Shown here in pieces: positions 2,300 through 29,202 of a stretch of DNA of 64,000 nt. The notes beneath the pieces are model-generated. The model worked only from the letters and a program-made list of their open reading frames with translations, did no database searches and had not been told where the DNA came from. Both the position numbers and the translations under genes were made by a program. The DNA comes from a virus. Every line of letters begins with the position of its first letter. The first letter of the stretch is position 1. The DNA lies in the IMG/VR virus record IMGVR_UViG_3300017565_000003. One strand, 5' to 3'.

Positions 2300-5200
2300 A
2301 TGCAAATCATGTATTTAATATTTGATAAGAAAGATAAGGAAGTTATTGTAACAAAGGATTATGAAGTTTACCAAAACCAATTGGAGTCACTAGGATCTCA
2401 CTCAGACTGTAATTATTTTCACATGATGTCTGTTAACAAAGATGAATTAAATGAGTTTACAACAAAAACAAAATTTAAATCCTATGTAAAAGTATATTTA
2501 TAAACTATATACAAAATGAAAGGAAAAAACATATGAGTAATTTAATTAAAAAAGAAAAGCTACTGTTGGAAATATTGAGTGATATTGTAGATATAATGGA
2601 TTCTGATGTGGGAGATAAAGATTATATTCGTACTAAAATCGAAGAATTAAAAGAACAATTAGAATACGCATCAATATAAAATCTAGGATTTAAACAGTTA
2701 ACAAATCACAACAAATCATAAAATAATCTGTAATTTTGCAACTTAACCAGGCACTATCCCATGTAATCATCATAGTATACAGTATCAAGAACAAAGGGAG
2801 TTGCTTAAAGATGAATTTAACACTTAAATATGATTGTGAAATTACAGAATATATGGTTATTCCAGAGGGAACTGAAGTCAAACTATATGGGGATTGGAAC
2901 GAATACGATGGATTTACGGCCATTGAATACCAAGGTGAAGTCTATTACTTAAATGATCAATATTTTGTAGAAGTTCCGGTTGCTGCTTTGTGATAAACTG
3001 TAAATAATAATCATTTTAACTTGAATACAAGGAGGAAATTAAAATGGACTTAAAAATGAAGAATGATCTTATTGACGAAATTAGATTTTCTATACCTAGT
3101 AAAAGAATGCTGGAGGTAACTAATAATCTTGCGGTTAGAAATCCAAATAATGATGAATTAATTTATTTAAAACAACGACCTAATTTCGAAGATACTCCTT
3201 TGTCAGAGTATATTGAGTATAATGAACATCATGATATGTATTATGAATATGAAGAATTGTTAACTAAGTCTGTAATAATTGATAAATCATTACTTAGACC
3301 AAGAGGAAGAGAAGCTTTGGAAAAGTTAAAATAAAATAAAAGAAATGATTTATCTAGAATAGGGGAATTGAGAAAATGTTTTTTATTATATTAAATACCC
3401 TGTTAATTCTTTTCGCTGTGTATTTAATAGTTGAAGTAATAACAGGTAATCCTAAAGACTATTTTTATTATGATAAGGAAACTGGTGAGATCAAAGAAAA
3501 GAAAAAGAAGGTGTTGACTACTGTTTTACCATATTTAGTCTTTGTTGCCTTCTTCTCGCTTATTGTCCAGGGAGTATTTTAAATTAGTTTTAAAGGAGAT
3601 GATTTAATTGACTAATTTTGAATTATGCAATCAGGAAGAAGCAACACATGTCAGAATTACTAATAAGTCAGATGCCAAACTAGTAGATGTAACCTTCGGA
3701 GAAGTCTATGAGTATAAATTTGATGACTCGGAAGATGAGATGACACATTTCCTTGAGAATGATAAAGGTGAATTACTATATGATTTTGAGGTAATTTTAA
3801 GTTGTGAATACTTGAAAGAGATTAATTAAAATACTAAGGAGTATCCAACATGAAAGAACTAGATGAACGACAAAAAGCATTTATTGATCTTTGGAAAAGT
3901 GGACACAGATTTCTAACAGAAGAAGATATGAAAAATAGAAATCATGGAATGTACAAAGAAGAAGCTGGATTTTATGAGGGAATGACAATTGAAGGAATGA
4001 AGTATCTAGCTAGAAAAGGTGATCTGACTGTAGAAGGTTTGAAATTCACTGAGGAAGAATTAGAAATATTCTTTAGTGTTATAAAATTCATGAGACAGTT
4101 TAAATAAAAGTCTGATTTTATACCAAAATAAATCAATATATAGTGTGTGTTTTGATTAAACAACACTATATGTAGTGTGTTATTTGAATGGGAGGTATAT
4201 ATTTATGAAAATTAATATAATTGAAGGCAAACATACAGATGAAAACATACAAAAATCGTATCAATATATAGTAAATCTATTTAGAAAAGAACAGATTGGT
4301 AAGGAAAGTCAGCCTAAAACCTAATTTTATACTTTTGAATGATTTTTAACCAGGTGTTATATTATCCTCAAACAAATAAAGGAGTGATTACTATCAACGC
4401 AAATATACCGTTCATTCTGTTTTATGAATTAGAAAAAGATGACTTAAACAATATAGTCAACCTATCTAACAATTTAATTATGTTTGATAGACAGTTAAAA
4501 GAAATAGAAGATAAATACTTCTTAGATTTGCGTAATATGAGTTACTGTGAAGTTGTAGAATTTATTGAAGTTCTGGATCAAAAATTGTTTGAATTAATTG
4601 AATCAAAGAGTGCGTAAGCTGCACTCATACATAATATAAATAAACTTAATGTAAGGGTGGTATAAAAAATGGAATTAGCGAGAGTTGAAACAGCGTTTTA
4701 TAAAACATTTAAAGAAAAAGAACACCTTATCCAGCAATTGAAACGTAAATACGATGAAGTTAAACTAACTTTCTTAGAAAATATGATCATTTATCAATAC
4801 TATGAAAAGGCTGAACACGAGTAAATATAAGTAATTTTAATCGAATTATGTACAAGGCACGAGCTTTAAGAAAAAATGTAGAATCTTAGGCTTATTTGAA
4901 TATGGATTTTTATAAATAAATTTAATATAAACTATTGTATTTTTGTTGGTTGTTGTATATAATAAGTTTGTAAGGTAAAAACAACCAACGGAGGAAACAA
5001 TTATGGAATTAAAAAAGGTGGTGGGTACAAATGTAACCCATATAGCAGAGGCAAGATACAGAAACTTTACTGGAACTAACTTAGCTATCGATGAATCATA
5101 CATAGCAAAACCAGCAGCCAAAAAGAAAACTCCAGAGGATATTCGTAAAGGTATGATTTCTGGCTATATGAAGATGTTAAGTAACTTTAATTGATAAATA

Positions 5201-5552
5201 AACTATTCATTAATAATTAGGTGGTGTAATTATGTTACCGGATATCATTGATTATCTTGAATTGGATCAGATGTCAGAAGATGAACTGTATAGCATGAAG
5301 AAAGAACATAAGATGAGAACATTAGACAGTTTAAAGAAAGTTATTTATAACAACATACATAGATTTGAATTAGCTCAGATTGAGGAATATAGAGATTATT
5401 TATTGCAGCAGGTAGATGAAGAAATAAATGAGATTGATTTCTATAGTGTACATACTAGTTATACATACGCAGAGCAACAATATAAAGAGTTTTTAAATGA
5501 TTATAAAAGTAAACTTAACTATTTATTTAATGAGTTTTTGTGTTATAGTTAA
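2300..5552 (+). other. Array of small hypothetical phage ORFs (2300-2503, ~2808-2993, 3044-3334, 3376-3582, 3608-3829, 3850-4107, 4205-4324, ~4393-4617, 4669-4824, 5003-5194, 5232-5552)
   Basis: Co-oriented ORFs each with a purine-rich RBS; no recognisable family. Confidence 0.65.
4131..4178. promoter_or_regulatory. Tandem NrdR-box-like sites
   Basis: CAATATATAG (4134) and CTATATGTAG (4166), 32 bp apart, matching the acaCwAtATaTwGtgt consensus. Confidence 0.65.
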
Positions 5553-11780: not shown

Positions 11781-13310
11781 ATGACTATTCTTGATAAAGA
11801 AATTGAATTTCCTGTAGCGAAAAACATTGAACATCTTGAGAAGCTTAATTATGAGATCCCTAGATACATAGATAATCAAGGTAGGAATAAAATTAGGAAA
11901 GGTACAAAAATTAAAATAAATGTAAAGGATATCCCTAATGGAAGCAGATTCCTTGTAAGATTTAAATGTGATTACTGTAACGGAGAAAATCAAATATCCG
12001 AAAGTGATTATTTAAGACCTTATTACACCTTGATAAATGGGAGACAATTTATTGAGAAAGACTGTTGTAACAATAGAGAATGTATTAATAGGAAAACCAA
12101 AGAAATAAAATCAAATAATCCTATTCCTGTAGAGAAGTCTTTTGGAGGAAAATACCCACTTTTGATAGAAGAGTGGAGTAAAGATAACAATAAATCACCT
12201 TTTGAGTATGGACATGGAAGCTTTGAAGAGGTCTTGTGGGATTGTTTTAAATGTGGTAGTGAGTACGAAATGAAAATCAATCATAGAGGATATCATAATT
12301 GTGGTTGTCCATATTGTGCCGGTAAGAAGGTTAATCATACAAATTGCCTGTGGTCAACTCATCCTGATATTGCAAAACTACTAAAAGATTCTCAAAGAGG
12401 TTATGAAATTACTGCTGGATATTCGGGGAAAGAAGAATTTAAATGTGCTTCTTGTAACTTTTCTGAACTCAAATTCGTCCAGAATATAGTTAAAAGGGGT
12501 TTATCATGTCCTGTATGCTCAGACGGCATCAGTTACCCTGAAAAGTTTGTATTCAACGTTCTCAACCAACTAAAGATTAAAATAGAAAGACAGAAAGTAT
12601 TCGAATGGTCGAAAAATATCTATTGTGAAAATGATAGTCTTAATGGTATTAAAAAATATGATTTTTATATTCCACATTTAAATTGTATAATCGAAACACA
12701 TGGTGAACAGCATTACTTTATAAGGGATAGAAAATTTGAAAGAGATGGACAAATTGAACAGGAGAATGACGCATTAAAAGAAGATCTTGCATTTAAAAAT
12801 AAAATAAATCATTATGTTATTTTGAACTGTTCAATATCTAGTCTTGAATTCATTAAAGATAGTATTGTGAAAAGTGATCTGAATCAATTGTTAAACTTGA
12901 AAGATGTCAATTGGGAAGAATGTCATTCATACGCTATTTCATCTTTAGTTAAGTTGGCATGTTCTCTGTGGAGAGAACAAAGAAGTATAAATGATATCTC
13001 TAAAATAATAGACGTTGATAAAGCTACAGTCAGGAGATATTTGATAAATGGAAGTGAAGTTGGATTATGTGATTATAACGGAAAAGAAGAAGGGGATAAA
13101 ACACGTAAAAATAACTTGAAGAAGATAAATGAAATAAATAAAGTGCGGATCATTCAACTAACAAAAGAAGGGGAATTTATTAGAGAATGGGATAGTGTTA
13201 AGGATGCGCAAGGACACTATAAAATAAATAATATCACCGCAGTGTGTAGGGGGAGACAAAAAACAGCAGGCGGGTATAGATGGGTATATAAAAAGGATTA
13301 TATTTTATAA
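11781..13310 (+). CDS. Zinc-ribbon repeat / PD-(D/E)XK-like nuclease / NUMOD1 protein (putative homing endonuclease)
   Basis: Repeated CxxC..CPxC zinc ribbons, YDFYIP..IIETHGEQH, C-terminal IREWDSVKDA..ITAVCRGRQKTAGGYRW. Confidence 0.75.
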   Translation: MTILDKEIEFPVAKNIEHLEKLNYEIPRYIDNQGRNKIRKGTKIKINVKDIPNGSRFLVRFKCDYCNGENQISESDYLRPYYTLINGRQFIEKDCCNNRECINRKTKEIKSNNPIPVEKSFGGKYPLLIEEWSKDNNKSPFEYGHGSFEEVLWDCFKCGSEYEMKINHRGYHNCGCPYCAGKKVNHTNCLWSTHPDIAKLLKDSQRGYEITAGYSGKEEFKCASCNFSELKFVQNIVKRGLSCPVCSDGISYPEKFVFNVLNQLKIKIERQKVFEWSKNIYCENDSLNGIKKYDFYIPHLNCIIETHGEQHYFIRDRKFERDGQIEQENDALKEDLAFKNKINHYVILNCSISSLEFIKDSIVKSDLNQLLNLKDVNWEECHSYAISSLVKLACSLWREQRSINDISKIIDVDKATVRRYLINGSEVGLCDYNGKEEGDKTRKNNLKKINEINKVRIIQLTKEGEFIREWDSVKDAQGHYKINNITAVCRGRQKTAGGYRWVYKKDYIL

Positions 13311-13447: not shown

Positions 13448-14497
13448 ATGATGGAGATGTTGACAAATGTTATTCAAATGACTCCACGAGGCGGAGATCC
13501 GAATGTGCTTGATCAAATAGAAAGATACTTACAGAACAAAGGAAACAAAAGTGAAAGAACAAAAGAGTCTTACGCAAGAGATATAAAAGAATTCTTTAAA
13601 GAAATAAGAAAAAAGGAAATTAGTCAACTATCAAGAGAAGATGTTCAATTAAAAATTGATGACTTTGAGGATTTTATTAATAAGAAATTGGACGAAGGCC
13701 AACTTAATAACAAAACGATTAACAGATGTGTTGGCACAGTAAAGACATTGTTAAAGTATCTTAACTCCAAAGGGATTGTAGATGATATATCCTTTTTACT
13801 TAATGGAAGCATTGTTAGATTACCTGAAGTTAAAAATAAATATGGAGCATTAACTGTAGCTGAAGTGAATGAATTGGCAGAATTAGCTCTACACGAAAGA
13901 GAAAAAGGAGAGATTAAAAGACTGTACTTTCTTTTTCTACTTGAAACGTGTGCAAGGAAAACAGCAGCGATGAATATGAAGTGGTCTAATTTTACTGAGA
14001 TCAATGAAAATGATGTTACACTAAGATATATAGATAAGGGCAATAAAGAATTTAAAATTAAGATAGCAAGATGGCTTTATAATGAATTATTAACCCTAAA
14101 AGTAGAAGGTGAGGAAAGAGTATTTAATCTTTCTGAAAATGCAATTCAAAATTCATTTACAAGAATAAAAAAGAAAATGAATATTAGAGAAGAGAGAAAC
14201 ATTGTTATACACAGTATACGTAAATGCGGTGCAACGTTTTTATTTTACAAGACAAATAACATATTGTTTGTTCAAAAGGTTCTTGGGCATACGAATGTAA
14301 ATGTAACCCAAGATTACATCGATGTTCAAGACTACGGTGTAATTGGTGCGGTGTCAACAGCGGGTGAAGTAGGAGTAGAAATCATTAATGAAGTTTCTCA
14401 TGAAGAGTTATTAGCTGCTATAAATTCTTTACCGAAAGACAATCAGCTTTTACTAGCTCTAAAAATCCAAGAATTAAATCAAAACTTGTCACAATAA
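13448..14497 (+). CDS. Tyrosine recombinase-fold protein, YopP/SroD-like
   Basis: N-terminal SAM-like domain; catalytic R (TCARK), K (DKG), HSIR, LGH, Y (QDY); first gene of yopP-Q-R-like operon. Confidence 0.8.
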   Translation: MMEMLTNVIQMTPRGGDPNVLDQIERYLQNKGNKSERTKESYARDIKEFFKEIRKKEISQLSREDVQLKIDDFEDFINKKLDEGQLNNKTINRCVGTVKTLLKYLNSKGIVDDISFLLNGSIVRLPEVKNKYGALTVAEVNELAELALHEREKGEIKRLYFLFLLETCARKTAAMNMKWSNFTEINENDVTLRYIDKGNKEFKIKIARWLYNELLTLKVEGEERVFNLSENAIQNSFTRIKKKMNIREERNIVIHSIRKCGATFLFYKTNNILFVQKVLGHTNVNVTQDYIDVQDYGVIGAVSTAGEVGVEIINEVSHEELLAAINSLPKDNQLLLALKIQELNQNLSQ

Positions 14498-14604: not shown

Positions 14605-15951
14605 TTGGATACGCAAATAAAAAAAGATAAAAGTGAATTTATCAATGATCTTCAAGAAGTGTTTACACAAATTAAAGACAACAAGAAAATTACAGATAAA
14701 ATAAAAACTAACATGATGAAAGTATACAAAACGTTACCTGGTCGAGCACATGGTTATATTCATGGCATAGAAGCAATGAGAGAAGAAGACATTCAATACA
14801 TTGCACTATTGGCAGAACAAACTTATATAGTTACAGGTAAAAGTTTGTCTAATCCTTTAAACACATTAACTGAGCGAGAAATGAAAGAAATTAAATCTAA
14901 TTGGGAAGGTTATCAGTCAAAACAAGAGACTTTCCCTTATACTTTCAAGAATGTAATTAAAATAGCTGATGATGATTTTATTTGTTCAGTTGAAGCGAAA
15001 GATATTAACTACCTTTTTCTTAACGGGTTACTTGAATATAACCCAGAGACTCAACGTGAAGGTCGACAAGTAAAGAGCAGAGATAGTGAAGAGATTATAA
15101 CAGTTCCCAAAGTAATTGAGAAAAACGTAAAAGAAATGGTTGAACTATTAGAGAAAAATGAAATTATCAGTTCTATGATTACTTTCAATGCAAGATTAGG
15201 TACATCGGACAATGAATTAGGTGAGTTAGTTTACAATGAAGAAAATAAAACTTTAACAGTAACAGAAGGTACATTATTAGATGTACTAGATGGATTCCAC
15301 AGGATTAATGCCATAAGTAGAGCGCTAAGAAAAAACCCAAGTATTAATGCAATGTTCAAACTAAATATCTTAAACTACAACAAAAAGAGAGCTATAAAGT
15401 ATTTCTCCCAAATGAACAAAGGTCAAAGTGTTAGTGAATCTCACCTTAAGAAAATGTCTGAAACAAGATATGGCGACTTTATTGCCAAACAAGTACAAAG
15501 TAGTAGTCAATTGAGTGGTAAAGTTGCAGCAGGAGATCATATTTCACCTAACTCAGACTTATTAGTTACATTTAATACACTTTCTGATTCTATAGATGAA
15601 ATATTCAAAGTAGAGGATAGATCAACTGCTTTAAAAATTTCAGAGTATTTAACTGAATTTATTGATACATTATTTGATTGTTATCCAGAAGAATTCATTA
15701 AAGACATAGCTAAACAAAGAGAGAAGTCTTTAATGGGAAGTAATTCGTTTTTTAACGGATACATTAAACTTGCGAAGAATATGTATGATAATAAAATTAA
15801 ATTGAGAAAATTACCTAGTATACTAAATCAATTGGATTTTTCTAGAGATAATAAATTTTGGCAGGAAATAAATATAGTTGATTCGAATCAAAGAATTAAA
15901 TCAAATGCTAAAAGAGTAATTATTAGCGTATTCGATAAATTAGAATTGTGA
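14605..15951 (+). CDS. ParB/DndB-like protein, YopQ/SroE-like
   Basis: YNPETQR and VLDGFHR motifs; synteny between two integrase-fold genes. Confidence 0.75.
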   Translation: MDTQIKKDKSEFINDLQEVFTQIKDNKKITDKIKTNMMKVYKTLPGRAHGYIHGIEAMREEDIQYIALLAEQTYIVTGKSLSNPLNTLTEREMKEIKSNWEGYQSKQETFPYTFKNVIKIADDDFICSVEAKDINYLFLNGLLEYNPETQREGRQVKSRDSEEIITVPKVIEKNVKEMVELLEKNEIISSMITFNARLGTSDNELGELVYNEENKTLTVTEGTLLDVLDGFHRINAISRALRKNPSINAMFKLNILNYNKKRAIKYFSQMNKGQSVSESHLKKMSETRYGDFIAKQVQSSSQLSGKVAAGDHISPNSDLLVTFNTLSDSIDEIFKVEDRSTALKISEYLTEFIDTLFDCYPEEFIKDIAKQREKSLMGSNSFFNGYIKLAKNMYDNKIKLRKLPSILNQLDFSRDNKFWQEINIVDSNQRIKSNAKRVIISVFDKLEL

Positions 15952-15962
15952 GGTAACTAAAT

Positions 15963-16937
15963 ATGGCTGAAATGTACAATGAAGAAATTAAAAGAGAATT
16001 TTTAAAAGAATATCCAGAAAAAACTGCTGAGACATACAGTTACGTTTTTGCTAGAAGTAAAGATACAGAAGAGGTTATTGGGAGAGACTTATATACATTT
16101 TCAACAGATGAGATAGTAGACGTTTTAAAAAACTCTAATCACACAACTATAAATGCACTTAGACATACTTGGAATATTATAAAACTTTATTTAGATTGGT
16201 CTGCAAGATATAGAGGAAATAGCATTAATCAAGCAAAAAATATACCTATGGATGAATTAAGAAATTATCTAGACACGACTAAGAAACTATATTTAAATGA
16301 AGATGAAATAATTGATATTGAAGATAAAGCAGCTAATGCACAGGATATAGTTGCGGTTAGACTGATGTTTGAAGGCGTTGGAGGATTCCAAATGTCTGAA
16401 ATTTGTAATTTAAATTATAGTGATGTGGATTGGAACAATAATATATTAAAACTTAGAGATGTTAAATATGGTGAAAGAGAAGTAAAAGTAAGTGATAGAT
16501 GTATTTCGATTATGAAGAGTGCATATGGTCAACAAGTATACCTAAAAGGTAATGGGGAATCTAACGCTAGAAACCCAGAAGCACCTTTGCAAGAATCAGA
16601 CTATATAGTGAAAAATATTCAAACAGGATTAAATAAAAACTTTGATGGTGTAGATCGACATACTATGTATAGAAGAATTTCTACTTTAAGTGAATCGTTC
16701 AATTTACCATATTTAACTCCGAAAGGAATAGAAAAATCAGGTCAACTGTATATGGCCTACAAGTTATACAAAGAATCTGGAAAGTTAGATAATGAAGAAT
16801 TAGAAAAGATTGCAGAAAGATTTAACATGAGAAAAGTGAAGATTAACGGAGCTTATAGATACAATTTTACAACTATGAGAGAATATATAAACTTAGATAA
16901 CATAAATGATTTATATCCTACAGAAGAAACAGTATGA
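15963..16937 (+). CDS. Integrase-fold master repressor, YopR/MrpR/SroF-like
   Basis: MYNEEIKREFL start, L.FEG..G..MSEI.NL, LTPKGIEKSG; catalytic R and HxxR lost. Confidence 0.8.
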   Translation: MAEMYNEEIKREFLKEYPEKTAETYSYVFARSKDTEEVIGRDLYTFSTDEIVDVLKNSNHTTINALRHTWNIIKLYLDWSARYRGNSINQAKNIPMDELRNYLDTTKKLYLNEDEIIDIEDKAANAQDIVAVRLMFEGVGGFQMSEICNLNYSDVDWNNNILKLRDVKYGEREVKVSDRCISIMKSAYGQQVYLKGNGESNARNPEAPLQESDYIVKNIQTGLNKNFDGVDRHTMYRRISTLSESFNLPYLTPKGIEKSGQLYMAYKLYKESGKLDNEELEKIAERFNMRKVKINGAYRYNFTTMREYINLDNINDLYPTEETV

Positions 16938-17464: not shown

Positions 17465-17743
17465 ATGAAGTATTTATTTCAGGGTGGAGTCACATTGGAT
17501 TTCTTTTGCATGGTTGGAGGTGAGAATGCAGGGAAAGCAGAATATAATTTCCACAATGTAATTGATGTTAATAATTTGCAGGTACAGGGAATTTTGGTAA
17601 AAGGATCTGACGGTAAACTACATATGTTAGGTATCGAAGATTCTAATCTAGAAGTTGATTCAGTAGTTGAAGTTGACGAAGATACACCTAAAAAGTATCG
17701 AGACTACCAAGTTGGGAGCTTAGTAGTCAATACGATTGTTTAA
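17465..17743 (+). CDS. Hypothetical acidic protein, probably SOS-inducible
   Basis: GGGGAG RBS; LexA box upstream. Confidence 0.7.
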   Translation: MKYLFQGGVTLDFFCMVGGENAGKAEYNFHNVIDVNNLQVQGILVKGSDGKLHMLGIEDSNLEVDSVVEVDEDTPKKYRDYQVGSLVVNTIV

Positions 17744-17823: not shown

Positions 17824-17907
17824 TTTCGGCATCACTACAAAACACCGCAAAATGTACACACGAAAATTTGTAGTGGTTTTGCGGTAGTTAGTAAAAAAGA
17901 ACTACAA
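17824..17907. promoter_or_regulatory. Cluster of ComA-like half-sites upstream of the comX-comP operon
   Basis: TTTCGG 17824, CTACAA 17835, CCGCAA 17845, TTGTAG 17868, TTGCGG 17879, CTACAA 17902. Confidence 0.4.
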
Positions 17908-17991
17908 AACTATTAAAATCTTATTTTAAAATTAACTAATCTATAGTAATATTAATATAATCCTATAGATTGTAAGAAGGGAATATTTCTT

Positions 17992-18162
17992 ATGAGAATA
18001 GGTAGAATAATAGCTCATTTAATCAATAATGAGGAAGAGACAGTAGCAATATTGTTTGGTATGGCATCTTTACTTAATGTTGATGAAGATGAGTTAGAAG
18101 CAATAAAACAAGTTTTATCCTATGATCCAAAATCTTATTTAATGGAGGAATCGTTAAGATGA
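17992..18162 (+). CDS. ComX-like precursor lacking the C-terminal Trp (56 aa, not in ORF track)
   Basis: MRIGRIIAHLINNEEETVAILFGMASLLNVDEDELEAIKQVLSYDPKSYLMEESLR; ComX leader pattern; AAGGGA RBS; ATGA overlap with next gene. Confidence 0.65.
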   Translation: MRIGRIIAHLINNEEETVAILFGMASLLNVDEDELEAIKQVLSYDPKSYLMEESLR

Positions 18163-18323
18163 ACAAAGTAATTGAACATTTATTGAGCAATCCGCAAGAA
18201 GCCTTAGCTGTAGCAGAAGGTAAAGCAATGCCAGTAGAACGCTTAAGTGCAAAAGAACTTTTACAAGTTGTAAGAACTGTAAGCACTGAAAAAGGTTCTA
18301 ACTTTATGAAATACTGGGGTTAA
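18159..18323 (+). CDS. comX: ComX pheromone precursor (54 aa, not in ORF track)
   Basis: MNKVIEHLLSNPQEALAVAEGKAMPVERLSAKELLQVVRTVSTEKGSNFMKYWG; ComX size and leader pattern, near-terminal Trp, GGAGG RBS, directly upstream of comP. Confidence 0.8.
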   Translation: MNKVIEHLLSNPQEALAVAEGKAMPVERLSAKELLQVVRTVSTEKGSNFMKYWG

Positions 18324-18330
18324 TGGTTAA

Positions 18331-20619
18331 ATGAAAGAGAGAAAATGGTTTAACTTATTTACAGTGTTAATCGTGGCTGCGGTCACTTTAACACTGTATT
18401 TTTCTTATATAATACTAAATTATGATTATATCGGTGCAATGGCCATAATTGAAGATGATAAAGTTACTATTGGAGCAACTGAGCCCCTTACATGGTCATC
18501 TGATAATTTAAATGTTGGTGATGAAATACTTTTAGTTGATGGAAAAGATCCTCTAGAAAATGCCATTATTCAAAAATGGAATATGCTTGAACAAGTAAAG
18601 CATTTAGAGGTTCTTAGTATAGATGGAACAAAAGAAAGCCTTATAGTCGAAGGTAAGTTTGATGGACAAATAGTATTTCACTTTATTGTCCCAATAGCTA
18701 TTTTGATTTTAAGTTTATATTGTAGTTATCTTATATATAAGAGTTATAGAAAGTCAGAGAATTCTGCTGAATCAGCATTGCTGTTAATAGCGTTTTTACT
18801 AACATTTTCTTTAGCTTATATGTGTGGGGGAGCTTCAGCAAGAGGAGATTTATTTTCAAGAACTCTTGTTGTCCCTTTATTACTAGCAACCCCAATACTT
18901 TATTTGCAATTTATGCGAAGATACTATGAGGAAATGAATACTAGATGGTTCAGTAAGTATTGGATATGGGGATGTTATGTACTATTACCAATCAATATAG
19001 TTCTGAGTCTTCTAAGTGGATCTATTAGTTTACCTGGTACTTTAGTTAAACTTATTAACCTTTCAAGTGCTCTGATTGTATTCTTGTTATGCGGTGTTTT
19101 AATATTAACTGGGTTAAAGAAAGTAAAATACAAAACGCAAAAATATATGATAAGAGTATTACTTTTATCTAATATTCTTGCTTTTGCTCCTTTTGTTCTA
19201 TTGTATGTTTTACCATTCGTATTATTTAAAATTGAGATTGTTTCACCTGCATTTCTTACTGGATTCTTGATTATAATACCTTTTTCATTAGTTTATCAAT
19301 TCTTAGCCACGAAAATTTACGATATTGAATTTATTGTTGGTAGGTTTAAGTATTACAGCTTATTAATAACAGTTCCATCCATAATAGCAGTGGCAATTAC
19401 AATGACTGTAGCAACAACCAATTCTACCGTATTCTCTATTAGAATGTTCCTTGTGTTGTTTGGCGTAATGTTTGGAACGCTGTATCTAAAAGAAGTGTTG
19501 GACTACAGATTTAAGCTGAATAAAGTATCTGAGAAAGCAAATTATCAAGACAGGTTGACTGCTTATACTAGAAAGATAAGGGTGGCAAGAAATATCGAGG
19601 AAGTTTCAACTTTACTAAAACAGAATATTACTGACACTATGCTTGTTACCAAGGCGCACAGAGTAAAGTATGATAAAAGCAAAGGAACCTATAAGAGCAA
19701 TACATTCTTGGAGGTTGGTAATGAAGATTATCAACAAGTCTTTAATCAAGCAACTAAAACCCTCGGAGAAATTGTTGAACTAGATAATGGATTTGTTTTA
19801 AATATAGGGGAAACAAGAGGGGATGTTTATTTAATAATAGCTTTATCAGATATTAACACTCCTAAATTAACAAGAGATGAAAAGCAATGGTTGAACAATT
19901 TGGCCTATTATACAAATGTGACTCTTGAGAACTTCATTAAAATTGAAAACTTAATGGATAATCTGGAGGAGCTTGAAAATAATCCTATATGGCTTAATAA
20001 GATTGTTTTTAATCTTGAGGAAAAGCAGCGTTCTAGTTTAGCGAAAGATCTACATGATGCCGTACTACAAGATTTAATTGGATTGAGAAGAAGGATGGAA
20101 ACTCTCTATTTAAAACGAATTCCTACAATGGATGAAGAAACTGAAAGAGAGATCAATAGCTTTATTGTAGGTATGACTGATGCAATTGAAACAACTAGAA
20201 AGACATGTAACGAATTAAGACCACATTTATTATATGATCTAGGCATTGAAAAAGCTTTGAATAAGCTTGCAGATGAACATAATAAAGATGGTCAAAACGT
20301 CATTCTTACAACAAATAACCTAGATAGTTCAATTAGCGAAGAAGTACAATTAAATATTTATAGAATTGCACAAGAACTCCTTAACAACGCAGAAAAGCAT
20401 TCTTTTGCTAAAACAGTTAGATTAGTTGCTGTTAAGATAAAGGAAAAAGTTGTACTTCACTATGAGGATGACGGTGAAGGTGAAGATTTAGAGTATATTC
20501 TTAACAAAGAGGGAAGTATGGGACTGTCCGGTATTAGAGAAAGGGTTCGCATACTTAATGGTGATATTAAAATAGAGACAGAGCCAGGACAAGGATTTAA
20601 AGTTATAGTTGAAATTTAG
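18331..20619 (+). CDS. comP: ComP-like sensor histidine kinase
   Basis: 762 aa; N-terminal TM, PDZ-like loop (LNVGDEILLVDG), polytopic TM region, HisKA_3 H-box KDLHDAVLQ, N-box ELLNNAEKHS, EDDGEG, GSMGLSG. Confidence 0.88.
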   Translation: MKERKWFNLFTVLIVAAVTLTLYFSYIILNYDYIGAMAIIEDDKVTIGATEPLTWSSDNLNVGDEILLVDGKDPLENAIIQKWNMLEQVKHLEVLSIDGTKESLIVEGKFDGQIVFHFIVPIAILILSLYCSYLIYKSYRKSENSAESALLLIAFLLTFSLAYMCGGASARGDLFSRTLVVPLLLATPILYLQFMRRYYEEMNTRWFSKYWIWGCYVLLPINIVLSLLSGSISLPGTLVKLINLSSALIVFLLCGVLILTGLKKVKYKTQKYMIRVLLLSNILAFAPFVLLYVLPFVLFKIEIVSPAFLTGFLIIIPFSLVYQFLATKIYDIEFIVGRFKYYSLLITVPSIIAVAITMTVATTNSTVFSIRMFLVLFGVMFGTLYLKEVLDYRFKLNKVSEKANYQDRLTAYTRKIRVARNIEEVSTLLKQNITDTMLVTKAHRVKYDKSKGTYKSNTFLEVGNEDYQQVFNQATKTLGEIVELDNGFVLNIGETRGDVYLIIALSDINTPKLTRDEKQWLNNLAYYTNVTLENFIKIENLMDNLEELENNPIWLNKIVFNLEEKQRSSLAKDLHDAVLQDLIGLRRRMETLYLKRIPTMDEETEREINSFIVGMTDAIETTRKTCNELRPHLLYDLGIEKALNKLADEHNKDGQNVILTTNNLDSSISEEVQLNIYRIAQELLNNAEKHSFAKTVRLVAVKIKEKVVLHYEDDGEGEDLEYILNKEGSMGLSGIRERVRILNGDIKIETEPGQGFKVIVEI

Positions 20620-20648
20620 GAGCTGCTTATGCAGTTCTTATTTTTTTG
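20619..20648 (+). terminator. Rho-independent terminator after comP
   Basis: GAGCTGC-TTAT-GCAGTTC followed by T-run. Confidence 0.75.
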
Positions 20649-20668
20649 GTTAAATATGAAAATAGTTG

Positions 20669-27963: not shown

Positions 27964-29202
27964 ATGAATTATCAATTTGAAAAGAATAAGTTATACGCAT
28001 ACTTAGGTAGTGATTTGGTAGACGCATTAAAGCATTACAAGGCATACATAGCAGGTGGAACAATTACAAGTTTGTTCTGTAATAGAGAAATCAATGATAT
28101 TGATGTTTATTTCAGAAGCGAAGATGATGTGATTAAATTCCTTATAGATATTTGGGATGAACAAAAGTGGATAGTTACTCAAACTAAAAAGGCAACACTA
28201 TTAGTGTATGGAGATGTTAAAGTACAATTAATACACTTTGACTATTTTAAAAGCCCTCAAGATATATTCGACACATTTGACTTTACTGCATGTATGGGTT
28301 GCTTTGATTTTTCAACAGAAGAATTTATACTCCATGAAGATTTCCTTAAACATAATTCACAACGATTAATAAAGTTTAACAGCAGCACAGCTTTTCCAAT
28401 TGTATCATTATTACGTGTTCAGAAATACCAAGATAAACGTTATTACATATCAAAACCAGAGTTTATTAGAATAATACTTACTTGTATGAACTTAAATATC
28501 AATACATTTGCAGAGCTGAAGGATCAGCTTGGAGGTATGTACGGCATTAATTATGACAAGTTGTTTGAAGATGTAGATGAAGAAGAATTTGATTTGCAAA
28601 CAGCCATTGATAAAATAGCAAATATTACATTAGATGAAGACTATTTCAAAGAACCTGAACCGGTACAATTTACAAACTTAGAGGATATTCTTGACAACAT
28701 ATCAACTAAGCCTATGAAAATCTTAGAAGTAAACGATAATACATATCGAATTGGTTATGATGGCCTTTTAACAAAAATTAAAGAAAAACCAGATAACTAT
28801 GAATTAATTAATACATATGAATTCTTTTATAAAAATAAATTTTACAAATATGTTAAAAAGGATAATGAGAAGTATTTTAGCTTTTACAATCCAAAGTTTG
28901 AATACAGAATTGGTGAAGAAGTAGTAGCGGAAGGAAATAGTGGTGGTTCGGGTTATTATAATCACGGTGGCAAGCTGCACTTCAATGAGAAGATGGATAT
29001 TAGTAAATCACCATATAGATTCCACACTAATGCAGTATTAATTGAAGTTGAGGTTAAGCCGGAAGATTTCATTGATGTAGATGGACATGTATTAACTAAG
29101 AAGTGTCATGTGATTAGAGAAGTGCCAGAGGAAGAATGGGAAAAGTTTAATCAAGTTGAAACTAAGATGGAAGATTTAACTTCAGGATTTAGTCTAAGTT
29201 AA
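27964..29202 (+). CDS. Nucleotidyltransferase-fold protein (pol beta superfamily, CCA/polyA-like head) with extra C-terminal domain
   Basis: IAGGTITS..INDIDVYF and FDFTAC motifs. Confidence 0.65.
   Translation: MNYQFEKNKLYAYLGSDLVDALKHYKAYIAGGTITSLFCNREINDIDVYFRSEDDVIKFLIDIWDEQKWIVTQTKKATLLVYGDVKVQLIHFDYFKSPQDIFDTFDFTACMGCFDFSTEEFILHEDFLKHNSQRLIKFNSSTAFPIVSLLRVQKYQDKRYYISKPEFIRIILTCMNLNINTFAELKDQLGGMYGINYDKLFEDVDEEEFDLQTAIDKIANITLDEDYFKEPEPVQFTNLEDILDNISTKPMKILEVNDNTYRIGYDGLLTKIKEKPDNYELINTYEFFYKNKFYKYVKKDNEKYFSFYNPKFEYRIGEEVVAEGNSGGSGYYNHGGKLHFNEKMDISKSPYRFHTNAVLIEVEVKPEDFIDVDGHVLTKKCHVIREVPEEEWEKFNQVETKMEDLTSGFSLS

Follow-up and report, generated by a model that had tools for sequence, protein, structure and literature searches.

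The chromosomal comQXPA quorum-sensing operon, in which comQ, comX, comP and comA lie together, is the closest described relative of the locus examined here. In the ComX family, a tryptophan near the C-terminus is the site of isoprenylation. The locus is a three-gene cassette, comX'-comX-comP, present on the plus strand at positions 17992 to 20619 of a 64,000-nucleotide stretch of viral DNA (IMG/VR record IMGVR_UViG_3300017565_000003, referred to as the window). Like comQXPA, it has a ComX with the typical leader and an aromatic-Trp-X tail, and comX is directly upstream of comP. Its ComP has the length, membrane topology and HisKA_3/HATPase_c core of the chromosomal protein and, aligned over 99% of its length, shares 41-45% identity with 27 ComPs encoded between comQ-comX and comA on chromosomes of Metabacillus, Peribacillus and related bacteria. 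It differs from comQXPA in that comQ and comA are absent, a Trp-less gene, comX', is found in the comQ position, and the carriers are SPbeta-like phages. In most of these phages a ComA-type box precedes the cassette, and the phage pheromone tail is conserved where the chromosomal tail is hypervariable. It appears somewhat probable that this is a working, phage-inherited quorum-sensing cassette, a cut-down comQXPA for which the host supplies the two missing steps.

Other phage-borne communication systems are known. The C. difficile phage phiCDHM1 carries agrD, agrB, and agrC, with no response regulator among its agr genes (PMC3901668). This agr set is the only other phage-borne kinase-type system that was found. 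As in the ComX-ComP cassette, the phage carries genes of host quorum-sensing origin for a peptide signal and for its receptor, a membrane histidine kinase. However, phiCDHM1 has a processing enzyme, AgrB, whereas the ComX-ComP cassette has no maturation enzyme. The phiCDHM1 signal is a thiolactone peptide instead of a presumed prenylated Trp peptide, the kinase family and the phylum branch of the host differ, and the extra leader-mimic gene is found in the ComX-ComP cassette. The arbitrium and Rap-Phr systems are also peptide communication genes of SPbeta-like phages that are located near lysogeny-management genes, and Rap-Phr feeds into host pathways, as the cassette would. These systems use intracellular RRNPP receptors and unmodified imported peptides, whereas the receptor of the cassette is a membrane kinase and its signal presumably needs a host enzyme. 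A preliminary description of this DNA had considered the arrangement to be new for a phage. Literature searches bore this out, as no published phage-encoded ComX/ComP was found and ComX does not appear in a 2025 review of how quorum sensing enters phage decisions.

The first gene, comX' (ORF1; 17992-18162, plus strand), encodes a 56-aa, Trp-less, leader-only paralogue of ComX. The second, comX (ORF2; 18159-18323, plus strand), encodes a 54-aa pheromone precursor with the C-terminus FMKYWG. The two open reading frames (ORFs) overlap by ATGA, and comP (18331-20619, plus strand) starts 7 nt past the comX stop. It encodes a 762-aa membrane sensor histidine kinase with approximately 10 transmembrane segments and with HisKA_3 and HATPase_c domains. 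A promoter-like site (17932-17961, plus strand; TTAACT, 18 nt, TATAAT), which is a consensus match only, is found 30 nt upstream of comX'. A hairpin followed by a T-run that resembles an intrinsic terminator (20617-20650, plus strand) overlaps the comP stop codon. Since a putative promoter and terminator flank the three genes, comX'-comX-comP appears to be a self-contained unit. The two translationally coupled small ORFs, the intact 762-aa kinase and the closing terminator had each been pointed out in the preliminary description, and all are present as described.

The assignment of comX was explored with profiles, and the two kinds of profile search gave different answers. Both small ORFs fell below the Pfam cut-off of 25 bits for ComX (PF05952), with 17.6 bits for ORF2 and 18.5 bits for ORF1. 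However, when ORF2 was compared by hhalign with 12 chromosomal Metabacillus ComX sequences, it aligned over its full length, Trp included (97.3%, E-value 2e-11). As judged by this profile-profile comparison, ORF2 is a ComX, as first described. Its Tyr-Trp pair (Y52 and W53), at positions -3 and -2 from the C-terminus, is invariant across eight cassette ComX sequences. All 27 chromosomal ComX sequences end in aromatic-Trp-X, with the Trp at -2 as in ORF2. The phage leader deviates from the host leader in the ASLLGV motif.

The ComP of the window has about 10 hydrophobic segments in residues 11-384, and both HisKA_3 and HATPase_c score above their Pfam cut-offs. The catalytic residues H575, N685/N686, D713, G715, and G717 are invariant within the cassette clade. 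Of the 57 DHp positions that do not vary among chromosomal ComPs, 44 are kept in the window protein, 38-46 in each of the phage ComPs, and 47 in the ComP of Metabacillus arenae. The phage ComP thus looks competent as a kinase, and its description as an intact ComP-type protein is supported by its domains, its catalytic residues and its full-length homology to the ComPs of comQXPA operons.

The cassette is not limited to the window. The order mrpR, a 92-aa ORF and comX'-comX-comP is also found in six further phage or prophage contigs, which makes seven with the window. These are from an uncultured Metabacillus genome (L007), a prophage of Metabacillus sp. Hm71 (L008/L022), a 74.6-kb Logan contig (L009), Bacillus sp. 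7586-K (L010), a 157-kb Logan contig (L068), and a 7.6-kb contig (L069). Across these loci, identity to the window is 49-62% for ComP and 68-72% for MrpR. A tree of 45 ComPs places its five phage members (window, L007, L009, L010, and L022) in one clade with a support of 98 in the SH-like approximate likelihood ratio test (SH-aLRT), apart from 28 chromosomal comQXPA ComPs. This clade also holds P0007 and P0008 (from the tandem arrays), P0010 (from an orphan cassette), P0004, and P0009, and the ComP of M. arenae is outside of it. The ratio of nonsynonymous to synonymous substitution rates (dN/dS) is 0.07-0.11 for comP, 0.08-0.11 for comX, 0.04-0.18 for comX', and 0.03-0.08 for mrpR. These comparisons of sequence demonstrate a cassette that is intact, inherited with the phages and under purifying selection. 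The preliminary description had named a sporadic, decaying capture as the finding that would speak against it, and conserved synteny with low dN/dS was found instead. Neither the cassette nor 20 kb of the window matched any INPHARED phage at the DNA level, and INPHARED proteins matched ComP only in the kinase core (25-32%). A pattern search of IMG/VR gave 16 matches, none of them a relative.

It could be proposed that chromosomal comXP was captured by chance and is now a neutral or decaying passenger. Fragments of such genes do exist, namely a truncated ComP in M. litoralis (L052) and a degenerate ComX remnant (L060/L061). In the phages, however, the cassette is intact on all seven contigs with ComPs that differ by up to 51%, dN/dS for its genes is 0.04-0.18, and the cassette ComPs form one clade. 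Both the comX' partner and an element upstream of it are conserved as well. A passenger is therefore a very improbable explanation.

The enzyme and the regulator that would complete the system were searched for. Searches of the 64-kb window by tblastn with host ComQ, host ComA, and SPbeta AimR gave no match at an E-value of 1 or less, and no ComA-like sequence was found by tblastn in the window or in the flanking phage loci. In Hm71, there is no REC or GerE regulator near the prophage. This genome has three polyprenyl synthase genes on contigs C7, C4, and C8, and the prophage is on C2. Both sequenced lysogens, Hm71 and 7586-K, possess a complete chromosomal degQ-comQ-comX-comP-comA. The preliminary description had seen no prenyltransferase or response regulator beside the operon and had suggested that comQ and comA be located in the host. 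The first of these points extends to the Hm71 prophage, which also has neither, and the second has been answered by the two lysogens. Because the prophage is without both genes while the lysogens carry chromosomal comQXPA, borrowing of host ComQ and ComA is the simplest reading.

Cassettes of the comX'-comX-comP type without an adjacent comQ or comA are also found on Metabacillus chromosomes or outside of a phage context. In M. arenae, comA comes directly after comQ, and neither comX nor comP intervenes (L055:1369-3050). The sole ComP of this bacterium is encoded on another contig, in a comX'-comX-comP unit after an mnh antiporter operon (L026:9578-12196). This looks like a natural split of the comQXPA operon and a precedent for its parts working in trans. 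An island of M. niabensis and a relative possesses a triple tandem array of ComPs of 771-778, 770, and 770 aa (L060:5527-13316 and L061:2504-10313), along with genes for a KAP NTPase and for an HTH-like (helix-turn-helix-like) protein of 361-366 aa. In these arrays, only the last kinase is preceded by an intact comX'-comX, and the middle kinase is preceded by a degenerate remnant ending in FKYWRRTI. An orphan cassette is also present on a small Logan contig (L062). These orphan cassettes (M. arenae, M. niabensis, and L062) have the same three genes as the phage cassettes. They differ in lacking the 92-aa ORF, and no ComA-type box within three mismatches was found near them. Metabacillus litoralis SaN21-6 has a frameshifted C-terminal ComP fragment of the cassette type on its chromosome (L052:10001-10808), which is 49% identical and is a decayed copy.

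The preliminary description had considered ORF1 to be a second pheromone precursor and had named the module ComX-ComX-ComP. This has to be revised. By hhalign, comX' matches chromosomal ComX at 93% over the leader only (35 columns) and cassette ComX at 97%, and none of its 10 relatives contains a Trp. The family consists of 10 clusters among 5.8 billion proteins, all of them annotated as hypothetical. The protein keeps the host-like leader motif ASLLxVD better than the phage ComX does. A complex model of Hm71 host ComQ with the ComX' of the Hm71 prophage scored 0.77, and the best of three controls scored 0.00. Of 80 solved complexes, 58 reached the mark applied to this score, as did 2 of 110 mismatched pairs, counts that are only rough because own alignments were used. 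The runs of the model agreed in at least 90% of contacts, with a predicted local distance difference test (pLDDT) value of at least 76 for the partner. Both helices of ComX' were placed against ComQ residues 224-283. Because no ComQ or ComX structure was found in the PDB by sequence search, it is unlikely that the model passed by reproducing a known complex. The result supports, at the level of a prediction, the docking of ComX' on ComQ as a leader mimic without an acceptor Trp. If the host does complete the cassette, ComX' represents a new family of small proteins with a predicted place on ComQ, where it might naturally modulate how the pheromone matures. In the L009 phage, comX' (L009:7617-7778) has no ATG, GTG, or TTG for the conserved N-terminus, the frame opens past a TGA, and the gene was missed by gene callers. 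A rare ATT start, 9 nt past GGAGG, is likely there.

These features could also mean that the cassette damps or hijacks the host quorum response. ComX' would occupy ComQ and lower the output of host ComX, and the phage ComP would be a signal sink or a phosphatase of ComA~P, keeping lysogens from competence or other ComA-dependent states. The well-kept ASLLxVD of a protein with no acceptor Trp and the modelled docking on ComQ are in line with this, and phage Rap-Phr modules that act on the ComA or Spo0A pathways are known (10.1101/2021.07.15.452460). However, jamming of ComQ would block the ComX of the phage as well, and this ComX retains the invariant Tyr-Trp. A pure jammer is disfavored as well because M. 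arenae retains comX' without a second ComX to jam. All catalytic motifs of the kinase are conserved, and ComP is not known as a strong phosphatase. Interference of this kind is considered quite unlikely.

A conserved element upstream of comX' suggests possible control by ComA. An alignment of five phages indicated one element, TTGCGG-N4-NCGCAA. In 127.9 kb of phage loci, all eight matches to TTGCGG-N4-CCGCAA with two or fewer mismatches were located 78-176 nt upstream of comX'. This palindrome, a putative ComA site, is present in six of the seven phages (L007, L008, L009, L010, L068, and L069) with one or two mismatches. Examples are TTGCGG-TATA-TCGCAA, TTGCGG-AGTA-ACGCAA, and TTGCGT-GATA-ACGCAA. 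A second ACGCAA follows after a 4-5-nt spacer in L009, L010, and L068, and a near-copy, ACGCAG, is present in L007. The 6.1-Mb genome of Hm71 has five sites with at most one mismatch. The cassette site is the only intergenic one, and the other four are inside genes.

The promoters of degQ served as a positive control for a ComA-type box. In B. subtilis, degQ depends on ComP-ComA (PMC10581247), and the ComA site combines the inverted repeat TTGCGG-N4-CCGCAA with direct repeats that are spaced by 5 nt (PMC4797271). Each of the 14 Metabacillus-type degQ promoters that were inspected (L031, L023, L024, and others) has TTGCGG-TATC-ACGCAY or a one-base variant of it. This box is found about 100-160 nt upstream of degQ and is followed by a degenerate direct repeat, TTACGT-N5-TTTCGG. 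The conserved degQ box provides a putative model of the ComA site for the genus Metabacillus. The phage boxes match both this host box and the inverted-repeat and direct-repeat geometry of ComA sites, and the ComA proteins of Hm71 and B. subtilis have identical recognition helices. In the window, the corresponding control region (17832-17910, no strand assigned) contains one perfect CCGCAA hexamer at 17845-17850 and one perfect TTGCGG hexamer at 17879-17884, interleaved with three ACTACAAA repeats. The ACTACAAA repeat is not dispersed in the phage. The region aligns with the palindromes of the sister phages but is degenerate. Since the palindrome has decayed in the window, control by ComA is suggested for the lineage and is uncertain for the window phage.

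The palindrome could instead be an operator site for a regulator other than ComA, encoded by the phage or by the host. Many tetrahelical HTH proteins bind such palindromes. In L007, L009, L010, L068, and L069, a YopS-like HTH gene follows mrpR, and the window lacks both this gene and an intact palindrome. However, L008 also has the palindrome and its HTH gene is a different one. The palindrome is absent from the promoter region of the yopS-like gene and from elsewhere in 128 kb of phage DNA, it matches the host degQ box hexamer for hexamer, and the ACGCAA direct repeat 5 nt further on agrees with the geometry of ComA sites (PMC4797271). An operator for a regulator other than ComA is thus a doubtful reading of the box, although one with some chance of being right. 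An SPbeta-type MrpR operator was also considered and rejected. The promoters of SPbeta aimR, yopM, and yopV share an A/T-rich motif (approximately AAATACAAAAAATATGTATA), taken here to be SPBRE, which is unrelated to the palindrome. These three promoters are reported to be bound by MrpR (PMC10516654).

The signal and the receptor of the phages do not diverge in the way that chromosomal ones do. The phage pheromone tail is MKYW followed by G, V, or L. In pairs of phages with ComP sensor domains that are 30-70% identical, the last five residues of ComX are 80-100% identical, whereas chromosomal pairs at equal ComP divergence are 37-43% identical in these residues. The signal looks like one that is common to the phage lineage and not like a private, fast-diverging pherotype. 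The preliminary description had proposed a private signal and receptor pair, which is now doubtful since the tail is nearly constant while the phage ComPs are only 49-62% identical. The phage ComPs have 61% identity in the membrane domain and 60% in the DHp, and the chromosomal ComPs have 65% and 84%, respectively. The output side of the kinase appears to be less constrained in the phages than in the host. Mixed dimers with host ComP may be avoided in this way, or the partner of the phage ComPs may vary.

The relationship of the cassette to arbitrium can be seen in the Hm71 prophage. It possesses an AimR (PF22871, E-value 3e-84) that is 40% identical to SPbeta YopK and is encoded 13.5 kb upstream of comP. 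The gene (L021:10299-11477) sits between homologues of the window genes at 4384-4809 and 5235-5543. In the window, the corresponding slot (4809-5235) is about 425 bp and contains no aimR. Because the Hm71 prophage has both systems, with aimR away from the cassette, the two are independent and the cassette is not a simple replacement of arbitrium. It is an additional channel in that prophage and possibly the sole channel in the window phage, for which the 64-kb stretch was scanned. A 371-aa gene located upstream in L068 and L010 was considered as a candidate AimR and rejected.

The preliminary description had raised a possible coupling to lysis-lysogeny, but none of the observations ties the module to that decision. 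The ComP of the phage could belong to a phage decision circuit in which its target is not ComA but a different regulator of the host or a factor of the phage. Lysis-lysogeny or induction would be governed by such a circuit, which would be a second channel of the arbitrium kind or, where the aimR slot is empty, the sole one. The cassette is always beside the mrpR lysogeny-management genes, and aimR is absent from the window slot and present in the Hm71 prophage. The relatively variable DHp of the phage ComPs would suit this reading, as would the conserved pheromone tail, which is expected of a phage-lineage signal. However, there is no response regulator in the Hm71 prophage or in the window. 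In the 128 kb of phage DNA, the ComA-type boxes occur only before the cassette, and none occurs before repressor or lytic genes. The module also has its own putative promoter and terminator, as do lysogenic-conversion genes. A decision circuit with an output other than ComA is regarded as unlikely.

The reading preferred here is that of a working cassette that is completed by the host. Host ComQ would prenylate the conserved Trp of the phage ComX. The exported peptide, with a tail of MKYW plus one residue, would be sensed by the phage ComP, which would then phosphorylate host ComA. In most of the sister phages, ComA~P would activate the cassette promoter through the ComA-type box. The outcome would be that the ComA regulon of lysogens receives a second input, one that reinforces itself and responds to a signal common to related phages. 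As a leader mimic on ComQ, ComX' may modulate maturation, either as a helper or as a competitor. The phage could gain a lysogenic conversion of the social behavior of its host, or an input into its own life-cycle decision.

Several points weigh against this reading. Prenylation, export, sensing and phosphotransfer all rest on homology and context. Recognition by host ComQ is not assured, as the phage leader differs in the ASLLGV motif. The greater variability of the DHp in the phages (60%) than on chromosomes (84%) could mean that the partner is a different or a changing one. The search for comQ and comA covered 64 kb, and a comQ-like or regulator gene may be present in the remaining ~98 kb of the contig. 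The window itself has no match to TTGCGG-N4-CCGCAA within two mismatches, and the palindrome of the other phages could belong to another tetrahelical HTH regulator.

A bolder version of a host-completed cassette is that of a take-over device. It would be switched on by ComA~P, ComX' would redirect ComQ from the host pheromone to the phage ComX, and ComP would lock lysogens into a pherotype that is set by the phage and common to its relatives. In phages with no aimR in the usual slot, such as that of the window, the device would replace arbitrium in reporting density to the lysis-lysogeny decision. This is a speculative version, with a small but appreciable chance of being correct.

A lineage of SPbeta-like Metabacillus phages thus keeps ComX and ComP under selection, with maturation and output presumably left to the host. 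If the preferred reading is true, a virus can provide a bacterial social circuit, which governs competence and the production of surfactant and enzymes, with a second pherotype that the virus defines. A signal of the prenylated-peptide type would then be able to function although comQ is not linked to it. Metabacillus sp. Hm71 and Bacillus sp. 7586-K are the two lysogens in culture.

The genes surrounding the cassette indicate the kind of phage that carries it. A yopP-like integrase gene (13448-14497, plus strand; Pfam Phage_integrase) is followed by a DndB/yopQ-like gene (14605-15951, plus strand; Pfam DndB) and by mrpR/yopR (15963-16937, plus strand). The latter matches Pfam MrpR_N_CB (PF22822) and MrpR_C_cat (PF22823) with E-values of 1e-26 to 3e-34, and its product is 34-40% identical to the MrpR of SPbeta and Geobacillus virus E3. 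This order is that of yopP-yopQ-yopR in SPBc2/SPbeta. The end of mrpR (16937) is 1055 bp upstream of the cassette, in agreement with the distance of about 1 kb from the repressor region that was given in the preliminary description. The remaining genes of the window encode a DNA polymerase, helicase, primase, exonuclease, ribonucleotide reductase, methylases and homing nucleases. The window is the early or replication arm of a distant SPbeta-like phage and belongs to a 162.7-kb metagenome contig (ena:ERZ27256359 k141_316572). The GC content of the cassette is not distinct from that of the phage.

In every phage locus, the conserved 92-aa ORF (17465-17743, plus strand) directly precedes the cassette. 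Its copies (92-95 aa) have 40-62% identity and a dN/dS of 0.15-0.46. Searches of Pfam, PHROG, and INPHARED gave no match to it and no informative relatives, and only about 10 representatives were found among 1.8 billion proteins. In L010 and L068, a hairpin is found between this ORF and the cassette.

Two other genes of the window were observed. Directly upstream of the yopP-like gene is a gene for a 509-aa nuclease-like protein with a treble-clef zinc finger (DUF4379; 11781-13310). A 586-aa relative with NUMOD motifs is present in L007, and the window gene is probably a homing endonuclease. Further downstream, a 412-aa gene (27964-29202) belongs to Pfam Gad2, an anti-Gabija family, and related Gad2 genes are similarly placed in L007.

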